From positions 64,294,001 to 64,358,000 of the forward strand of contig OX597822.1 of NCBI GenBank assembly GCA_951406725.2: DNA of 64,000 bases, given 5' to 3'. Each line of letters opens with the position of its first letter. The first letter of the stretch is position 1. Of the stretch, positions 3,809 to 62,791 are shown piece after piece. The stretch is from Octopus vulgaris (Eukaryota). The notes under the pieces were generated by a model. That model did no database searches, was not told where the DNA came from, and saw only the letters and a program-made list of their open reading frames with translations. A program made the position numbers and the translations under genes.

Positions 3809-4609
3809 AATGCTCGTTCAGTAAAAGTACTCTGTGATTATTCAGCAAGTTTTCCATTGTATGGAAATACTTCCACGTTTTTCTTTTCTTTCTTTTTTTT
3901 TGTTAATATAATAAAAGAGGTTTCTACCATGGTTGTTTGACAGTCTGCAGGAGAAGGTGCTTGGTTGTCTGTCTGCCTGTCTGCCTGCACGACTGGATCG
4001 GTGCCTGTCTGCCTGCACGACTGGCTGGGCTTGGCTATGCGCTGCGCTGGCGGGTTAGATGTTTGGTTCCCTACTTCTGGATATTGCTTCCAGTCATTTG
4101 GCCATTTTTTGGTGACTTTGAAGACACAACCTGAAGTGTTTCAAAGGCTTGAAGTGTTGTTTACGACATTTTCCTTCCTTCATTCTATCTTTCTTTCTTT
4201 CTTTCCGTCCTTCCTTCCTTCATTCTTTCTTCCTTTCTGTCTTTTTTTCTTCGTTAAGAGTACAGTTGTGAGGGGACTCGATAACTTGACAATTACATAC
4301 CACAGTAAGATATAGACACTTAGGGAAGGGAGATGGGTGCAGATAAAAAGGGGAGAAGAGGAGACAAAGAGAAGGGCCAGCTCATGCTAGTACTTGTTAT
4401 ATGCAGTTATGTTATGTATTCGACAGAAGCACGCATATTATTTGTGTGTGTGTGTGTGTGTGTGTGCTTATGTATGTATGTATGTATGTATGTATGTATG
4501 TATGTATGTATGTATGTATGTATGTATGTATGTATGTATGTATGTACGTACGTATATATATATATTTCTTAAACCGGCATTCTTTTTCTCTCCGTCTGGA
4601 GAGAAAAAG

Positions 4610-4836
4610 GCTGCGAGCTGGCAGAACCGTTAGCACGCCGGGCGAAATGCGTAGCCGTATTTCGTCTACCGTTACGTTCCGAGTTCAAATTCCGCCGAGG
4701 TCGACTTTGCCTTTCATCCTTTCGGGGTCGATAAATTAAGTACCAGTTACGCACTGGGGTCGATATAATCGACTTAAATTCGTTTGTCTGTCCTTGTTTG
4801 TCCCCTCTATGTTTAGCCCCTTGTGGGTAGTAAAGA

Positions 4837-4839
<3 letters not shown>
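4610..4839 (+). mobile_element. SINE-B with Tx1-like 3' tail (TGTCCCCTCTATGTTTAGCCCCTTGTGGGTAGTAAAGAAA)
   Basis: Near full-length head, core and tail. Confidence 0.85.
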
Positions 4840-4871
<32 letters not shown>

Positions 4872-9617: not shown

Positions 9618-10083
<466 letters not shown>

Positions 10084-11554
10084 TATTTCTTTTAAATTGC
10101 CATAAAGGCATTACACAGAGGGGGCACTACAACACTCGTGGGACATATAACAATTAAAAATAAAATATGTTATAATGAATGAACATGAAAATGCACATGA
10201 AGAACAAATTAAAATATGATAATATGAATGATATCTGAAAATGATATTATGAAGAGTGTGCTACTCACCTCACACTGAGTAACACAACTCGCTGCCTCTG
10301 GGTCCTGAGTCCTTTTTCTCTTTTCGTCCAATCCTTTTTTCCTTTTCACTGTCACTTAATGATAACATTCTCTCCGTCATGCATTCATAACCTTTTTCAC
10401 CGGGAGTGGGGTCTTCTAAATTTTGTGGTGTCTGTTCTTTCTTTTTCTTTTTTTTTCTTGAGGGGAAATGGGGTGGGTGTGTTTGGTGTCTGTATGGGGA
10501 GGGTGGGTCTGAGTGGTCTTGGATGGGATGGGGTTGGACTGGGGTGCCACATCATACTCAGTGTCTTTTCTTTTTTTCCTCTTTCTCCTTTTGCGCTCTG
10601 CAATTTTCCATTCTTCCTCTTTTTTATCGTTTCCTTCGTCTGTTTTGTCTTCCTCTCTTTTCTCTTCTGTCTCTGCAACTATATCCTCAGCCGTAGTCCT
10701 TCGTAGAGGGCAGTATGCTCTAATGTGGCCCTTTTGGCCACATTTAAAACAACGTGGTACTCTGCCCTCTACCCACACCCTCAGCACGATTTCCCCCAGC
10801 GTCACAGTCTCTGCCAAGTTCTCGAGTTGTCCCTCCTCCGTCTGAATAATTAACTCGAGCGTCCTTCCTTTCCACCCTCCTTCTTCTGTTTCTGTGGCTT
10901 GGAGGACAGCCACCTTTTCCTCGCTTCCAACAAGGACAGCTGCCGCTACCCAAGCCACATTTATATCAGGCGGAATTCCTTCTACCCTTATCTTGGAAGT
11001 CCTTCTTCCAAGATACGTGGGTAGAAGGACCATTTCCTTCGTCTTTACCGTTTTGCCCGCCAGCCTCCTTGCCTCCTCCTCTGTTCTGAACTGGACTACC
11101 ATTGTCCCATATTGGCATCCTCTTGTCATGTATATTACTCCGTTGGATTCCTCCTTTACTGCCTTTTCTATTTTCTCTATTTCAATTAGGTCGATCTTCT
11201 TACTCTTTATCGAGTAAACTTTGTATATGACCGTTCTTTTTATGCCATCCATTATTCTTTGTGGCAGTGACAACGTCACGTTGCCGCCCACTTTCTGCAC
11301 CATTTTTCTATGCTCCTTCATTCTTGATAAATCCACCTCTTTTCTCTTCACCTCCACAGCTTCTGCGAAACTCTTCATGTTCTTCAAATATTCATCCATG
11401 CATTCTACTGCTCTCAGCAGCTCCTCCTCTGCAGAAGACAGCTCAGACTCGCTAAGGTCCGAGTACATTACTAACCTCAAAGCAGCAAAAGGAAAAACGT
11501 CCGACTCGCATACAAACGACAAACCAAATGCACTATGGGTAACCGGAAGCAAGC
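10084..11554 (-). mobile_element. ~1.47-kb non-autonomous L1/Tx1-type non-LTR element (ORF1 only) inserted in the SINE-A head
   Basis: TSD 10067-10083 / 11555-11571 (1 mismatch); 5' end GCTTGCTTCCGGTT..TCGGACGTTTT; 3' tail CCCCCTCTGTGTAATGCCTTTATGGCAATTTAAAAGAAATAA; no RT. Confidence 0.85.
10416..11468 (-). CDS. Gag-like ORF1 nucleic-acid-binding protein, 350 aa, single CCHC zinc knuckle (CFKCGQKGHIRAYC)
   Basis: Uninterrupted ORF from the first ATG inside the element (MYSDLSESE); CX2CX4HX4C, basic WKIAERKRRKRK motif; homologous to the ORF at 63363. Confidence 0.85.
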   Translation of the reverse strand: MYSDLSESELSSAEEELLRAVECMDEYLKNMKSFAEAVEVKRKEVDLSRMKEHRKMVQKVGGNVTLSLPQRIMDGIKRTVIYKVYSIKSKKIDLIEIEKIEKAVKEESNGVIYMTRGCQYGTMVVQFRTEEEARRLAGKTVKTKEMVLLPTYLGRRTSKIRVEGIPPDINVAWVAAAVLVGSEEKVAVLQATETEEGGWKGRTLELIIQTEEGQLENLAETVTLGEIVLRVWVEGRVPRCFKCGQKGHIRAYCPLRRTTAEDIVAETEEKREEDKTDEGNDKKEEEWKIAERKRRKRKKRKDTEYDVAPQSNPIPSKTTQTHPPHTDTKHTHPISPQEKKRKRKNRHHKI

Positions 11555-11596
11555 TGGTTAGCAAGCTACTTACCACACAGCCACTCCTAGGCCTAT
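11555..11596 (-). mobile_element. SINE-A 5' head fragment
   Basis: Reverse complement ATAGGCCTAGGAGTGGCTGTGTGGTAAGTAGCTTGCTAACCA. Confidence 0.85.
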
Positions 11597-11984
11597 GGAT
11601 GGAAGCACTCCGTCGGTTACGACGACGAGGGTTCCGGTTTAACCGAATCAACGGAACAGCCTGCTCGTGAAATTAACGTGTAAGTGGCTGAGCACTCCAC
11701 AGACACGTGTACCCTTAACGTAGTTCTCGGGGATATTCAGCGTGACACAGAGAGTGACAAGGCCGGCCCTTTGAAATACAGGTACAACAGAAACAGGAAG
11801 TAAGAGTGAGAGAAAGTTGTGGTGAAAGAGTACAGCAGGGATCATCACCATCCCCTGCCGGAGCCTCGTGGAGCTTTAGGTGTTTTCGCTCAATAAACAC
11901 TCACAACGCCCGGTCTGGGAATCGAAACCGCAATCCTATGACCGCGAGTCCGCTGCCCTAACCACTGGGCCATTGCGCCTCCAC
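11597..11984 (-). mobile_element. Full-length tRNA-headed SINE, family C, with 11-bp TSD CCTAGGCCTAT
   Basis: A-box TGGCCCAGTGG, B-box GGTTTCGATTCCC; tail GTCGTAACCGACGGAGTGC shared with 21450 and 53530; TSD 11586-11596 / 11985-11995. Confidence 0.9.
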
Positions 11985-12019
11985 CCTAGGCCTATAAAAT
12001 AATAATAATAATAATAATG

Positions 12020-20736: not shown

Positions 20737-20996
20737 AACCGAAAGTGTAGCTGTCAGGAATAATCAGCGTGAACAAAATATGAAAAGGCTGGCCCTTTGA
20801 AATACGGGTACAACTCATTTTTGCCAGCTAAGTGGACTGCTTCAACATGAAACTAAAGTGTCTTGCTGAACGACACAATACGCCGCCAGGAATCGAACTC
20901 ACGAGGTTAGAAAGTGAGCCGAATACATTAATCACTGAAATTATGTTAAAAGGTAAATTGTGTTGGCTAACTGTTCGACTTATCCGATCAGCTATA

Positions 20997-21385
20997 AGGC
21001 GGCGAGCCGGCAGAAACGTTAGCACGTCGGGCGAAATGCTTAGCGGTATTTCGTCCGCCGCTACGTTCTGAGTTCAAATTCCGCCGGGTTCGACTTTACC
21101 TTTCATCCTTTCGGGGTCGATTAAATAAGTACCAGTTACGCACTGAAGTTCGACTTAATCCGTTTATCTGTCCTTATTTGTCCTCTCCGTGTTTAGCTTC
21201 TTGTGGTAATAATGAAATAGGTATTTCGTCCGCCGTTACGTTCTGAGTTCAAATTCTGCCGATGTCGACCTTAACTTTCATCCTTTCGGGGGTAGATAAA
21301 ATAAGTACCAGTTGAACACTGGGGTTGATGTAATCAACTCATTCCCTTCCCCAAAAGTGCTGCCCTTGTGACAAATTTGAAACCA
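20997..21385 (+). mobile_element. SINE-B dimer (Tx1-tailed copy joined to GGTATTTCGTC of a second copy)
   Basis: Junction ..GAAATA|GGTATTTCGTCCGCCG at about 21219. Confidence 0.85.
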
Positions 21386-21449
21386 TTATCTGGTCAGCTA
21401 GTTTACTTGCCTTTGAATCAGCGTTCAAGTTGTCAAGCATTCCACAGAC

Positions 21450-24659: not shown

Positions 24660-25228
24660 AGAGTGGGACCAGTCGATTAGATAGACCTCAGGACGCAACT
24701 GGTATTTAATTTATCGACCCCGAAAGAATGAAAGGCAAAGTCGACCTCGGCGGAATTTGAACTCAGAACATAAAGACAGACGAAATACCGCTAAGCATTT
24801 CGCCCGGCATGCTAACATTTCTTATTTCTTTATTGTCCACAAGGGGCTAAACATAGAGGGGTCACACAAGGACAGACAAAGGGATTAAGTCGATTACATT
24901 GACACCAGTGCGTAACTAGTACTTATTTAATCGATGAAAGGCAAAGTTGACCTTGGCGGAATTTGAACTCAGAATGTAAAGGCAGACGAAATACCTATTT
25001 CTTTATTACCCACAAAGGGCTAAACACAGAGCTGACAAATAAGGACAGACATAGGTATTAAGTCGATTACATCGACCCCAGTGCGTAACTGGTACTTAAT
25101 TTATCGACCCCGAAAGGATGAAAGGCAAAGTCGACCTCGGCGGAATTTGAACTCAGAACGTAGCGGCAGACGAAATACCGCTAAGCATTTCGCCCGGCTT
25201 GCTAACGTTTCTGCCAGCTTATCGCCTT
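24660..25228 (-). mobile_element. SINE-B tandem/nested trimer
   Basis: Three cores; tail junctions at GAAATGTTAGC and GGTATTTCGTC. Confidence 0.9.
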
Positions 25229-25449
25229 ATTCTGCTTTATAATAATGATTTGCCCCAGTTTTATCGGAGGAAGGTGAACGGTAATATATTCTGTAAACCT
25301 CACAATTCACGCAACAGCCTGGTATTGAACCAGATTTTCTGAAAAATATTCGATATGCATGATGTGATCACCTATTAATACTCATCGCTGATCATCAATA
25401 ATAGATGAAGAGTACGTGGGATAAATATTTAATTATTTTTTTATTGCTT

Positions 25450-31489: not shown

Positions 31490-32646
31490 AACTAGTACTT
31501 ATTTCATTGACCTCCGAAAGGATAAAAGGCAAAGTTGACCTCAGCGGAATTTGAACTCAGAATATAAAGAGCCGGAAGAAATGCTTCTGAACATTGTGAC
31601 TGATGCGCTAACGATTCTGCCAGTTCGCTTAGTAGGAAAAAACTCTTTTCTACTCTAGGCACAAGGCCCGAATTTTTTTTTTCTTGGTGTGTGTGTGTGT
31701 GTGGGGGGCTGTCGATTAGCTCAACCCCACTACGCAAATGGTGCTTAATTTATCGATCCCGAAAGGATTAAGGGCAAGGTCGACCTCGGCGGAATTTGAA
31801 TTCAGAACGTAGCGGCAAACGAAATATCTATTTCTTTACTACCCACAAGGGGCTAAACACAGAGAGGACAAACAAGGACAGACAAACGGATTAAGTCGAT
31901 TATATCGACTCCAATGCGCAACTGGTACTTATTTAATCGAACCCGAAAGGATGAAAGGCAAAGTCGACCTCGGCGGAATTTGAACTCAGAACGTAGCGGC
32001 GGACGAAATACCGCTAAGCATTTCGCCCGGCAGGCTAACGTTTCTTATTTCTTTATTGCTCACAAGGGGCTAAACATAGAGGGGACAAACAAGGACAGAC
32101 AAAGGGATTAAGTCGGTTACATCTACCTCAGTGCGTAACTGGTACTTAATTTATCGACCCTGAAAGAATGAAAGGCAAAGTCGACCTCGATGAAATTTGA
32201 ACTCAGAACGTAAAGACAGATGAAATACCTATTTCTTTACTACCTACAAGGGGCTAAACACAGAGGGGACAAACAAGGACAGATAAACGGATTAAGTCGA
32301 TTATATCGACCCCAGTGCGCAACTGGTACTTATTTAAACTACCCCGAAAGGATGAAAGGCAAAGTCGACCTCAGCTGAATTTGAACTCAGAACGTAACGG
32401 CAAACGAAATACTTATTTTATTTACTACCCACAAGGGGCGAAACACAGAGAGGACAAACAAGGACAGACAAACGGGTTAAGTCGATTATATCGACTCCAG
32501 TGCGTAACTGGTACTTATTTAATCGACCCCGAAAGGATGAAAGGCAAAGTTGACCTCGGCGGAATTTGAACTCAGAGCGTAGCGGCAGACAAAATACTGC
32601 TAAGCATTTCGCCCGACGTGCTAACGTTTCTGCCAGCTCACCGCCT
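31490..32646 (-). mobile_element. SINE-B array (about 6 cores, four with Tx1-like tails)
   Basis: Repeated GGCAAAGTCGACCTCGGCGGAATTTGAACTCAGAACGT units with recurrent junctions. Confidence 0.9.
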
Positions 32647-33104
32647 TGCTTGGTAGAAAATATTGCCAAGTTGCACACCAAAACCAACAACCTTATGAGT
32701 CAAGTTCCTAATGAAGCGAATCCACAATTTGCTTTCAGTTTTCGTTTGTGACCATCTCTGTTGGCCTTTGATGTAAGTACTTCAATTCAAGCTCGTACTT
32801 ATCTGAACAGTGTTGCTGATAACTGAATTGACAGAGGACAGGCAGCCAACCGTGGGTCCGGCGATTTCGTACCTGTTAACAGCGCTGCAATGCGTATTTT
32901 CCGCGAGCATGACACATTAATTAGTAACGGAATAATCCAACAAGTTGTGATAGGTCCTCTGTCACTCTCGACGATGATCATTCAATTCTCTGACTATATG
33001 AATTTTTAAAATCACAATTTAATTACAAAGAAGCAAAGAAGCAGGAAAAGAAAAAAAAGAAGGGTGGTGGTTGTGGTAGGGGGAAGGAACAACGGGCCGC
33101 ACAC

Positions 33105-38007: not shown

Positions 38008-38490
38008 GAGTCACCGAGAATGAGAATTGCCAAATCCTCTGGGTTGCAATGAATCAGTGCGATCACCTGATCAGACACTGGAAACCGGATATTATTGTGG
38101 TGAATAAAATAGAAAGAACATTTATGATAATCGACATCGCATGCCCCGGTGACAACAAGATCAATGTGAAAGAAGAAGAAAAAATAAGCAACTATGACGA
38201 TTTGAGGTGGGAAATACGAAGGTTGTGGTCAATGAGGAGAGTAGACGTGATACGAATAGTAATTGGTGCACTTGGAAGTATCAGCACTCAACTACCAGCA
38301 TGGTTGAAAATGATTGGAGCAGGTGTGAAGGTAGAACAACTACAAAAATCAGCATTGGCTGGAATTGCAAGAATTCTTCGCAGGATTCTTGAAGCATGAC
38401 CAGTAAACAAGTGTCATCTTAGTCTACTGGTTGTGCACAGCTGATACTTTCAATCATACCCAGCATAATAATGCTGTAATTTTTCATCAC
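38008..38490 (+). mobile_element. R4/Dong-like retrotransposon 3' fragment (RLE domain)
   Basis: KPDIIVV..IIDIACPGD..KISNYDDL..IVIGALG..LQKSALAGIARILRRIL*; flanked by (TAA)n. Confidence 0.85.
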
Positions 38491-38552
<62 letters not shown>

Positions 38553-38553
<1 letters not shown>

Positions 38554-39876
38554 TGAGTGAAGTAAAGAATATAGATAGGAAAATACGCAAGCTGCTGAGT
38601 TGTAATAGGATGCACCACCCAAAGGCAGACGTAGATCGCCTTTACCTTCCCAGACCCAAGGAGGTCGAGGCCTGATCCAATTTGAACTAGCTTACAAAAC
38701 AACCACAATTGGACTGGCCAAATATCTCGAAATATCGAATGACTGGATTGCTAAAGCTCGTGGAAAATCACGAGAGACGAAAGAAGCTTCATTCTATTAT
38801 AAAGGAAAGCAAAAAATTTGCTATTGATCTCGTGCAGGATACCCAAACTGAACAACCCGAGGGAAGTACGGCAACTATTGTTGCAAAGAAGGTGAAAATG
38901 ATGGCAACGAAAAAAGCGCACGAGCAATTGGCTGATAGGTGGGAGGAGAAACCTCTGCACGGCAAATATGTGGCCCGCAGCAAACAAGCTGATGTTGACC
39001 AGAAGCAAACCCATCAGTGGCTACGGAGCTCAGGGCTAAAAGCAGAGAGCGAAGGTTTCATCCTGGCTGCTCAAGATCAAAGCCTATTAACCCGGAACTA
39101 CCAGGCCAATGTGATGAAAAATGGAGCAGACCCAAAATGCCGATTCTGCAACGACATGATTGAAACAGTGGACCACCTAATCTCTGGATGTAAAGTCTTA
39201 GCACCAGTGGAGTATAAATTAAGACATGACAGAGTTGGCCAATATCTCCACTGGCTAATAAGTCGGCATTACAATATCAAAACTGCCGACAAGTGGTATA
39301 ATCACCACCCTGAGGCTGTAACTGAAGGAGAAAATGTAACCATTCTGTGGGACTTTCCAGTACATACAGACCGAACCATCAAGGCCAATAAACCAGATAT
39401 TGTTGTGAAAGACCAAAACAATAAAGTTTGCTTATTGATCGACATGAGCATCCCCTGTGATCATAATATCTCAGCGAAAGAGTTTGACAAGCTCAGAAAA
39501 TATAAAGACCTACTCATTGAAATTGAGAAAATGTGGCATCTCAAGGCGGTTACAATACCAGTGATCGTAGGAGCACTAGGAATGATCAAGAAGGGAACCG
39601 AAAATTATATGAGAATGATCCCTGGCTTACCATCCCTGCAAGAAGTGCAAAAGATTGTCTTAACTGGTACATCACACGTATTGACAAGAGCATTGTCGAT
39701 GTGAGAACTGTTGCTGCTCATGTATTTTAATTTAACTTGGAAAAAAAAAAAAATGAATGAACTATTGAGTTTGGTTTAATGGCCTACCAATGTATACTAT
39801 GAGTTTCTTTGCCCTAGGAGTCGGGAAGACACTCGGCAAGAAATGGAAGCAAATTTGAAAGAAGAAAAAAAAAAAG
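38553..39876 (+). mobile_element. R4/Dong-like retrotransposon, 5'-truncated (post-RT region, CCHC finger, RLE, 3' UTR)
   Basis: HPKADVDRLYLP../GGRGL (frameshifted); CRFC..ETVDHLISGC, RHDRV, KPDIVV..LIDMSIP..KLRKYKDL; stop at 39704; (TAA)n on both sides. Confidence 0.9.
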
Positions 39877-47521: not shown

Positions 47522-47670
47522 TTCCTTTTTTTCTTTTTTTTTTCTTTTTTCCCTTTTACGATCCCTTTTGATCGAAAACCTACGCCACCTTTTGTTTTCT
47601 CCCCCAAAAGAAAAGCTCTACCTTGTAACTTGTCCCATCTGTGTGCAGCCCTGTGTGGCCAATAAAGAAA
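47522..47670 (+). mobile_element. 5'-truncated 3' UTR of a Tx1-like element inside (TATC)n
   Basis: Ends TGTCCCATCTGTGTGCAGCCCTGTGTGGCCAATAAAGAAA; homologous in inverted orientation to 58392-58490. Confidence 0.65.
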
Positions 47671-47671
47671 C

Positions 47672-47763
<92 letters not shown>

Positions 47764-51784: not shown

Positions 51785-51916
51785 CTGATCTTCACTTCAG
51801 AGTTCTTTCTGTTGTAAAAATTCGGGACCGAGTTCCGGCTGCTTTTTTACTTACACATTAAATCTTACGGACAGTAAGATATAAAATTTCAAAGTAGTGG
51901 TATTATAAGTATTAGT

Positions 51917-52555
51917 AAGGTGGCGAGCTGGCAGAATCGTTAGGACGCTGGACGAAATGCTTAGCGGTATTTCGTCTGTCTTTACGTTGTTAGTTCAAAT
52001 TTCGCCGAGGTCGACTTTGCCTTTCATCATTCGGGGTCGATAAATTAAGTACCACTTACGCACTGGGGTCGATGTTATCGACTTAATCCCTTTATCTGTC
52101 CTTGTTTGTCCCCTCTGTGTTTAGCCCCTTGTGAGTAATAAAGAAATATATTTAAGGCGGCGAGCTAGCAGTATCGTTAGCACGCCGGGCGAAATGCTCA
52201 GCGGTATTTCGTCTGCCGTTACCTTCTGAGTTCAAATTCCGCCGAGGTCGACTTTGCCTTTAATCCTTTCGGGGTCGATAAATTAAGTACCAGTTACGCA
52301 CTGGGGTCGATATAATCGACTTAATCCGTTTGTCTGTCCTTGTTTGTCTCCTCTGTGTTTAGCCCCTTGTGGGTAGTAAAGAAATAGGTATTTCGCCAGT
52401 CGCTATGTTCTGAGTTCAAATTCCGTCGAGGTCGAACTTGCCTTTTATTCTTTCGGGGTCGATAAAATAAGTACCAGTTGAAGAATTGGGGCCGATGTAA
52501 TCGACTCGTCTCCATCTCCCTCAAGCTGCTCTTATGGCAAACATTTGAAATAATC
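51917..52555 (+). mobile_element. SINE-B array (3 cores)
   Basis: Two Tx1-tailed copies; junction GAAATA|GGTATTTCG at about 52387. Confidence 0.9.
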
Positions 52556-54169: not shown

Positions 54170-54239
54170 CTTCAATTTCGGTGCATTTATATATACATTT
54201 GATTGTGTATGTGTGTATATACCCATGCATGCATGCATT

Positions 54240-54448
54240 CTATTCTAGGCACAAGACTGAAATTTTTGGGGAGTGGGACCAGTCGATTAGATCGACCCCA
54301 GTACGCAACTGGTACTTAATTTATCTACCCCGAAAGGAGTGAAAAGCAAAGTCGACCTCGGCGGAATTTGCACGTAGAACGTAACAGCAGACAAAATACC
54401 GCTAAGCTTTTCGCCCGGTGTACTAACGATTCTGCCAGATCACCGCTT
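54240..54448 (-). mobile_element. SINE-B
   Basis: Family match. Confidence 0.85.
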
Positions 54449-54557
54449 TACGGAAACTGGTGTATTGAAATGCTGCTGACATTAGAAGTAGTGTACATGA
54501 ATAAGTATTAACAGCCACACACTGTGTCACGCTGAATCTTCCCGAGAACTACTAGTC

Positions 54558-55195
54558 GTAGGAGTGGTTGTGTGGTAAGTAGCTTGCCTAAGGCGGCGAG
54601 CTGGCAGAACCGTTAGCACTCCGGGCGAAATGCTTAGCAGTATTTCATTTGCCGCTACGTTCTGAGTTCAAATTCCGCCGATGTCGACTTTGATTTTCCT
54701 CTTTCGGGGTCGATTAAATAAGTACCAGTTACGTCGATGTAATCCGTTTGTCTGTCCTTGTTTGTCCTCTCTGTGTTTAGCCCCTTGTGGGTAGTAAAGA
54801 AATAGATAAGTAGCTTGCTTACCAACCACATGGTTCCGAGTTCAGTCCCACTGCGTGGAACCTTGGGCAAGTGTCTTCTACTATAGTCTCGGGCCGACCA
54901 AAGCCTTTTGAGTGGATTTGGTGAAAGGAAACTGAAAGAAGCCCGTTGTATATATGTATATATACATATATGTATGTGTCTGTATATGTTTGTGTGTCTG
55001 TGTTTGCTCCGCACCAACATCCCTTGACAACCGATGCTTGTGTGTTTAAGTCCCCGTAACTTAAGCGGTTCGGCAAAAGGAGCCCGGTAGAATACCTACT
55101 AGTCTTACAAACATAAGTCCTGGGGGTCGATTTGCTCGACTAAAAGTGGTGCTCCAGCATGGTCGCAGTCAAATGACTGAGACAAGTAAAAGAGT
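54558..55195 (+). mobile_element. SINE-A interrupted in its head by a SINE-B copy
   Basis: TSD TAAGTAGCTTGC(C/T)TA at 54576-54590 / 54807-54821. Confidence 0.9.
54591..54806 (+). mobile_element. Tx1-tailed SINE-B inserted in the SINE-A head
   Basis: Complete head AGGCGGCGAGCTGG to tail GGGTAGTAAAGAAATAGA between TSDs. Confidence 0.9.
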
Positions 55196-55457
55196 CAAAT
55201 AAGTATATTTCAACAAACACTGACATGTTAAAATATGTCTGTCTTAAAACGCACATGGTATACATATCACCCACTCAAATCCAGTGTGTTTAAACATGAT
55301 CGTACGTATATTTTAACGCATAGAAGTTCAAATAAGTGTATTTATATAAATACAAAATGACATACATGTACACACACACACACATAATGAATACCCACAT
55401 TAAGCCAAACAGACACACTCACACCACACACACAGACACACACACTACACACACACA

Positions 55458-62567: not shown

Positions 62568-62791
62568 CTGGCACCAGGTAAGTGTGGCCGGATCAAGAAG
62601 TAAAGGTTCTACCCAGATGGCTGGGATCCGTGCCCTACTGTATAATACCAAATTTTAAAAACTTTATATTGTAAATATTATATATATTTTATTGTAATCA
62701 CCAACGTTTTAAGCTACTACACCCTATATGTTTGTCTGTAATTGTATGTCCCCTCTATGTAACGCCTTAATGGCGAATCTTTCATGAAATA
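62568..62791 (+). mobile_element. 5'-truncated Tx1-like 3' end, TSD AAGTAGCTTGCT
   Basis: TSD 62556-62567 / 62792-62803; tail TGTCCCCTCTATGTAACGCCTTAATGGCGAATC..GAAATA. Confidence 0.8.

Follow-up and report, generated by a model that had tools for sequence, protein, structure and literature searches.

The window analysed here, a stretch of 64,000 nucleotides from Octopus vulgaris, contains a short repeat that has inserted into another one. The host element is called SINE-A and the inserted family SINE-B; SINE-B copies with the new tail are referred to as Bt and those with the old tail as Bo, and SINE-B positions are numbered after a natural copy at 52153-52387 of the window. The focal Bt copy is a 216-bp SINE-B variant located at 54589-54804, within SINE-A, and the features in and near it are as follows:

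54235..54458, minus strand: Bo copy, one of the old-tailed copies cited in the earlier note
54560..54588, plus strand: tRNA-like head of the host SINE-A, forming its 5' part and closing with the upstream target site duplication (TSD)
54574..54588, plus strand: upstream TSD copy, exact 12-bp core at 54576-54587, probable extent 15 bp
54589..54739, plus strand: focal Bt without its tail (SINE-B head and body); two small internal deletions lie close to the body end
54740..54804, plus strand: tail of the focal Bt, derived from an L1/Tx1-type LINE, with a TG/pyrimidine tract, a putative 4-bp stem with a 5-nt loop and an A-rich end
54805..54819, plus strand: downstream TSD copy, exact core at 54807-54818
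54807..55200, plus strand: 3' remainder of the host SINE-A

The earlier note on this DNA had recognized a SINE-B body with an alternative tail inside SINE-A, and this arrangement is confirmed. Its further claim, that a Tx1-tailed copy sits at a shared target with a TSD, holds for the duplication itself, the 12-bp sequence TAAGTAGCTTGC being identical on both flanks (54576-54587 and 54807-54818), but probably not for its register. The duplication is probably 15 bp long, GGTAAGTAGCTTGC(C/T), starting at GGTA and matching at 13 of 15 positions with one G>A change; read in this way, it begins 3 nt upstream of the LINE register. The TSD score of the exact 12-bp match is equalled by about 5% of shuffled flank pairs.

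SINE-B is short, non-coding, highly repeated and flanked by TSDs (present in 21 of 29 monomers vs 9% of shuffles), as is characteristic of SINEs. A- and B-box-like motifs are visible by eye in its head, which gave no tRNA match with ARAGORN or Rfam. The SINE-B body may be akin to the Meta domain, which in MetaSINEs spans 66 bp behind the tRNA head, and SINE-A may be akin to the CORE-type octopus SINEs. In the 2.8 Gb of genome searched, where the Bt tail was located by sequence patterns, the exact 29-nt end of this tail has at least 50,455 matches; the tail counts are lower bounds, because a degenerate pattern matched fewer sites (46,680) than the stricter 29-nt one.

The old-tailed copies cited at about 350, 12085 and 54240 are indeed present, all on the minus strand. 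Two alternative 3' ends were claimed for SINE-B, and both tails exist, but the motif cited for the old one, CCTTGTG..AGTAGAAA, is nearly common to the new one (CCTTGTG..AGTAAAGAAA). When the final 45 nt of the Bt and Bo tails are aligned, their score beats 500 of 500 shuffles. A small hairpin, suggested by its recurrence across tails, and an A-rich end appear common to both, thus making the tails less unlike than the earlier note implied; folding of the Bt tail RNA gave no significant z-score. Bt monomers diverge by 5.3% and old-tail monomers by 12.2%; against the youngest old-tail subtype the values are 4.4% and 8.8%. These values support Bt as the younger subfamily and a tail change that ran from old to new. 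Column 22, initially promising as a diagnostic position, failed for the young old-tail subtype.

The Tx1-like character ascribed to the new tail is borne out by LINE sequences: its first ~28 nt recur in the 3' UTRs of eight ORF2-bearing L1/Tx1-type LINE loci, all of them at the SINE-A site. The donor search used a pattern excluding SINE context, which gave 499 matches, and 20 loci were chosen for non-SINE upstream letters. Apart from the eight LINE ends, these comprised two ORF1-only elements elsewhere, eight truncated SINE copies and two LINE-like UTRs at SINE-A (L406, L407), viewed apart from the ORF2 test. The 18-mer match in these loci follows from the way the pattern was built, but its position about 60 nt from the ends of the LINEs does not. 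Over its final 45 nt, the Bt tail scores 18-26 against other families and 7 and 12 against the SINE-A-targeting ones, so the exact donor was not found; none of the LINE loci compared carries the complete Bt tail. The recurrence in LINE UTRs supports capture of the Bt tail from the 3' UTR of the L1/Tx1-type LINE clade. For the old tail no LINE donor was found among the loci examined (4 of 137 contexts were non-SINE, none a LINE), and the 3' ends of the reverse transcriptase fragments at 38-39.7 kb of the window do not match it. These fragments (38010-39704, plus strand) are two 3' pieces of an unrelated element, one with a weak zf-RVT match, which we presume to be a LINE with a restriction-like endonuclease.

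ORF2 of the partner LINEs contains APE endonuclease, RT and zf-RVT domains (Pfam), is closer to L1 ORF2p (E=7e-66) than to R2 (8e-22) among solved structures, and has its nearest named homologue in Argonauta (65%). ORF1 carries a CCHC knuckle (zf-CCHC match at E=6e-4, slightly short of the curated threshold; the motif is present in related ORFs). In domain composition, proximity to L1 and target preference the donor LINEs thus agree with the Tx1 clade. The SINE-A-targeting family is young (96-100% identity among the 20 loci fetched); the site motif is present at 20 of 20 loci, 14 of which run on into SINE-A, and one full-length copy, L191, has a 16-bp TSD. All 20 use the AAGTAG variant of the SINE-A site, two with one mismatch. 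In the loci found by the ORF1 search (L001-L030), SINE-A flanks were seen by eye in at least 20 of 30. Two members of the clade lie in the window:

10083..11560, minus strand: ORF1-only (CCHC knuckle), 1.5-kb Tx1-like element at the SINE-A site
62569..62790, plus strand: copy of the young L1/Tx1-type LINE that targets SINE-A, truncated at its 5' end

One LINE subfamily, which differs in its tail (L406, L407, L410, L418), occupies the SINE-A site in its AAGAAGC form, and several SINE-A-targeting LINEs (L151, L153, L161, L164, L192) are stacked, each inserted upstream of the last where the target duplication has been regenerated.

Does the captured tail direct Bt to the SINE-A site? Sixty random stretches of 10 kb (600 kb) yielded 57 tail matches, 54 with complete ends. 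Twenty-three of these ends run into SINE-B and three were scored as SINE-A (two at the site, one twelve bases upstream); of the rest, 11 start with AGGTA and then diverge, three enter (TA)n and 14 lead elsewhere. By eye, none of the 100 first-listed tail matches uses the SINE-A site. In work on Tx1 and SINEU families, a family counts as target-specific when over 20% of its copies occupy the target (PMC4494074). Use of SINE-A by Bt falls far below this value (2/54; 354 exact junctions genome-wide, vs about 163,000 tails as scaled from the sample), and it is SINE-B that exceeds it, with 23 of 54 3' ends, counted as adjacency and not as independent events.

The SINE-A site is nevertheless used non-randomly: 354 junctions stand against none at a control SINE-A position, where uniform insertion, judged from small sample counts, would give about 54 and 64, respectively. 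Short microhomology accounts for this use. About 290 of 14,217 AAGAA-ended tails (2.0%; the 290 are 82% of the 354, extrapolated from 100 listed junctions) lie at the SINE-A site vs a microhomology null of 1.7% (8 of 464 TAAGAA words), and with self sites removed the excess is at most about twofold. The register in SINE-A shifts with the tail variant: by eye, 82 of the 100 junctions listed join AAGAAGC directly, and 9 follow the GGTA route, joining 3 nt upstream in the same form as the focal copy. The AAGAAG variant of the site is found in 85 of these 100, and two of 30 AAGAA tails lie at another SINE-A position, which begins AAGAAAC. Since a LINE subfamily also occupies the AAGAAGC variant, endonuclease preference may contribute to these junctions.

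The tail swap proposed in the earlier note can therefore be retained as far as the capture of a LINE tail is concerned, the tail being found in LINE UTRs, but not as a gain of SINE-A specificity, given the 2 of 54 random ends. The suggested division of copies by tail type separates them by age, Bt being younger, and reveals self sites instead of a preference for SINE-A. The alternative of random or AT-rich insertion, against which that reading had been set, does not describe the data: the sites are non-random, being set by microhomology with a preference for SINE-B itself.

About four in ten sampled Bt copies adjoin a fixed point inside their own family. In the window, one of 11 tailed units lies within SINE-A and eight run into SINE-B position 51 or 18; a Bt monomer is found at

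4607..4840, plus strand: Bt monomer, (TA)n at its end

Where Bt ends tracks the read-through letters of the subfamily. Tails of the GTAGT/GTAAT type lead to SINE-B position 51 with its AGGTA(TTTCG) (AGGTATTT), and GCAAT tails to position 18 with its AAGAA(AC) (AAGAAAC); 12 of 30 AAGAA-ended tails enter position 18 (8 by script, 4 more by eye). How far the flank agrees with the read-through string varies by degrees, between 0 and 14 nt among 30 tails, and some flanks turn to unrelated sequence after a long match. Away from SINE-B, TSDs start with the matching letters. Bt caps 28 of 64 well-preserved old tails. Two natural Bt copies were checked for a terminator, and the intact one is without T4. 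Antisense Bt copies with TSDs also occur in SINE-B, at a site beginning GGTA (L119, L026, L179).

As a consequence of these junctions SINE-B forms head-to-tail arrays of the general form [1-tail][51-tail]...[51-end], and four are present in the window:

20995..21390, plus strand: [1-tail][51-old tail]
24660..25229, minus strand: [1-tail][51-tail][18-old-type body]
31640..32647, minus strand: five units, junctions at positions 51 and 18, old tail at the end
51916..52550, plus strand: [1-tail][1-tail][51-old-type body]

The pattern of tail, position 51 and old body has 2,697 exact matches in the genome. The final unit of an array is often an old-tailed copy of greater age and no close relation to the others: in old-tail arrays the last unit is older than the first (8.5% vs 4.4%, n=54, p=1e-8), its divergence being close to that of free old monomers (8.8%). 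Sibling clusters were absent among 77 last units (4 pairs with at least 3 shared rare variants; null mean 1.5, maximum 6), and a dimer family descended from a few masters was ruled out on this ground. First-unit heads are almost wholly of Bt type, with a divergence of 7.5% vs 6.6% in Bt and 12.7% in old copies; the fraction of host sequence in them is 0.18-0.35, confined to positions 4-28 and not significant. A Bt-specific variant in column 46 occurs in 13 of the 54 first-unit heads with a letter there vs 0 of 36 old monomers. With heads this young, simple in-register insertion that keeps the host head was ruled out for most arrays.

In 39 of 51 cases a single TSD surrounds the array as a unit; its mismatch rate, 7.9% vs 6.6% for Bt and 11.6% for old copies (p=0.59 and 0.11), does not separate the explanations and at most leans away from in-place insertion. 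True nested insertions with duplications of about 15 bp do occur, while most arrays lack a host head. In L314, a complete Bt follows the host head, and the 17-bp duplication there includes a private variant; the host head is retained likewise in L052, L273 and L237. Such head-retaining insertions account for about 5 of 141 arrays examined. Exact head-retaining junctions number 137 genome-wide, some local tandem repeats included, and judging from the listing they mostly lie 15-17 nt past position 51.

We propose, with a probability of roughly 0.6, that Bt acquired a LINE tail, that its copies adjoin positions 51 and 18 of their own family, and that these sites are likely set by pairing of the read-through bases at the 3' end of the RNA. 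Source copies would lie inside SINE-B hosts, where RNA polymerase III would read on into the host, so that transcripts would end in AGGTATTT (GTAGT/GTAAT tails) or AAGAAAC (GCAAT tails). The LINE reverse transcriptase may then prime where the target matches these end letters, leaving duplications of about 15 bp; this pattern is directly visible, the priming step is conjectural. The longest match to the end letters would be offered by the SINE's own head. In a minority of cases the result is in-place insertion at position 51 with a normal TSD. In most, and this is the least certain step, the 3' end of the cDNA may anneal to the homologous host head and replace it, which would yield [1-tail][51-...] arrays growing at the 5' end. 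By analogy with available accounts of R1Bm/SART1, where downstream target sequence helps priming, and of Drosophila R1A, where cDNA annealing deletes upstream target (PMC7265360, PMC2718515), old, unrelated last Bo units joined to Bt-young heads would fit such head replacement. The focal insertion into SINE-A would be a by-product, as GGTA is common to both sites.

Bt-young heads are explained as easily by template switching or by a composite RNA mobilized anew. Microhomology would still set the sites, and an array would be one cDNA, made when reverse transcriptase, having begun on one SINE-B RNA, switched at 51 or 18 to a Bt RNA with a matching end, or when read-through composite RNAs of many nested copies were re-mobilized whole. 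The column 46 variant, the single TSD around whole arrays with its mismatch rate nearer that of Bt, and the perfect 19-bp TSD of the headless array L338 speak for this explanation, which we regard as possible, if doubtful. It is opposed by the lack of sibling clusters among last units, which argues against few masters, by a flanking TSD in only one of 19 listed 5'-truncated arrays, and by the in-place nested insertions; we modestly favour in-place insertion. The agreement with read-through letters might itself be coincidental if several Tx1 partners with relaxed endonuclease preferences (GGTA, AAGAA, ATA) moved the tail variants. Multiple LINE subfamilies with distinct fixed 3' flanks exist in the genome, and Tx1 literature, in the portions available, links targeting mainly to the endonuclease. 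This is unlikely, however, as the match is graded up to 14 nt, sometimes with unrelated sequence beyond it, and the words favoured coincide exactly with positions 51 and 18 of SINE-B itself.

Unequal recombination or slippage after insertion, as in SINE-derived satellites, agrees with the near-identical units of some arrays (L221/L252, L081) and is probably behind the later expansion of a few of them. As the origin of the junctions it is refuted, and as a general account of the arrays most improbable, by two fixed junction positions throughout the genome and by young-tailed units joined to older units with a different tail. Still less credible is the model of the earlier note, in which the tail conferred the SINE-A specificity of its LINE partner. 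The tail-sharing LINEs do lie at the SINE-A site (8/8), where the 354 junctions exceed the uniform expectation, but the match to the microhomology null and the difference in site variant, AAGTAG in the young LINE (20/20) and AAGAAG in 85 of 100 listed Bt junctions, contradict it, and SINE-A specificity as a family property is refuted by the random ends (2/54).

Mobilization of SINEs by Tx1 elements with target preference, tail swapping, read-through pairing and SINE arrays are all known already. Crocodilian SINEU-1/2/3 have 13-90% of their copies at the target of Tx1-Mar LINEs, as described in accessible parts of PMC4494074. Like Bt, they are moved by Tx1-type machinery and have a preference for a further repeat, and in both systems Tx1 families have a transposable element as their target; unlike them, Bt lies mostly off the SINE-A target of its LINE, prefers its own family, and has a tRNA-like head and a LINE tail recognizable at the sequence level. 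In MetaSINE and mollusc SINEs, as in SINE-B, a single head and body is combined with 3' tails that stem from more than one LINE; CR1, L2 and Nimb are the partners given in the available passages (PMC4824008, PMC4758252, PMC11481361), and Tx1 has no mention in PMC4824008 and PMC11481361. In R1Bm/SART1 and Drosophila R1A, as partly available in PMC7265360 and PMC2718515, target-derived RNA letters guide priming or junction formation much as proposed for Bt, but these are autonomous LINEs with specific endonucleases, whereas Bt is a non-autonomous SINE apparently carrying the guide letters, and its subfamilies differ in site. Head-to-tail SINE arrays are likewise described for SINE-derived satellites and tandem SINEs, put down to unequal recombination and amounting to about 2-3% of copies in the excerpts available (PMC10702118, PMC11481361); Bt arrays involve about 40% of ends, fixed positions and units differing in age and tail. 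The 2026 Octopus repeat annotation, in its accessible portion, gives L1-Tx1 and unclassified SINEs without targets. No description of self-targeting of the SINE-B family was found in the full-text literature searched; Ohshima and Okada 1994, Kojima and Fujiwara 2004 and Repbase lie outside that scope and may name the elements.

The feature is real, with tail capture supported and SINE-A specificity unsupported, and self-targeting that follows the RNA end appears to be its more interesting property. Two SINE subfamilies differing mainly in read-through letters use sites of their own, over tens of thousands of copies, and thereby provide a natural experiment on whether an L1-clade element can have its landing site set by the 3' end of the RNA instead of by the endonuclease. 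The arrays suggest a retrotransposition-linked route to tandem SINEs and bear on the annotation and dating of a large repeat fraction of the Octopus genome, and LINE families targeting a SINE are documented. More tentatively, the principle might extend to the whole clade, targets being inherited through the RNA and not through the endonuclease alone. Families would insert where the read-through of the source copy pairs, and this could embrace the SINE-A LINEs, the 5'-end stacks of ORF1-only elements, a SINE retargeted twice (to 51 and 18) and tens of thousands of arrays.

Several minor observations concern the same repeats. Local satellite-like expansions of SINE-B units of 184 bp, 101 bp and 64 bp occur at L221/L252, G000:C1:15779642-15780175 and G000:C10:17996023-17996501. 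Head-to-tail arrays of at least five ORF1-only units of about 1.7 kb, each with a LINE-like tail, were seen at L182, L184, L185, L187, L188, L190 and L201-L206; they are reminiscent of HeT-A/TART arrays. At several of these loci the array continues into a complete element with ORF1 and ORF2, and the sequence on the 3' side of that element recurs between loci. At 47590-47672 of the window and in L190, a further LINE-like tail from this clade ends in (TATC)n microsatellites. A third SINE with a tRNA-like head, at 11700-11990 of the window (minus strand), adjoins the ORF1-only element.
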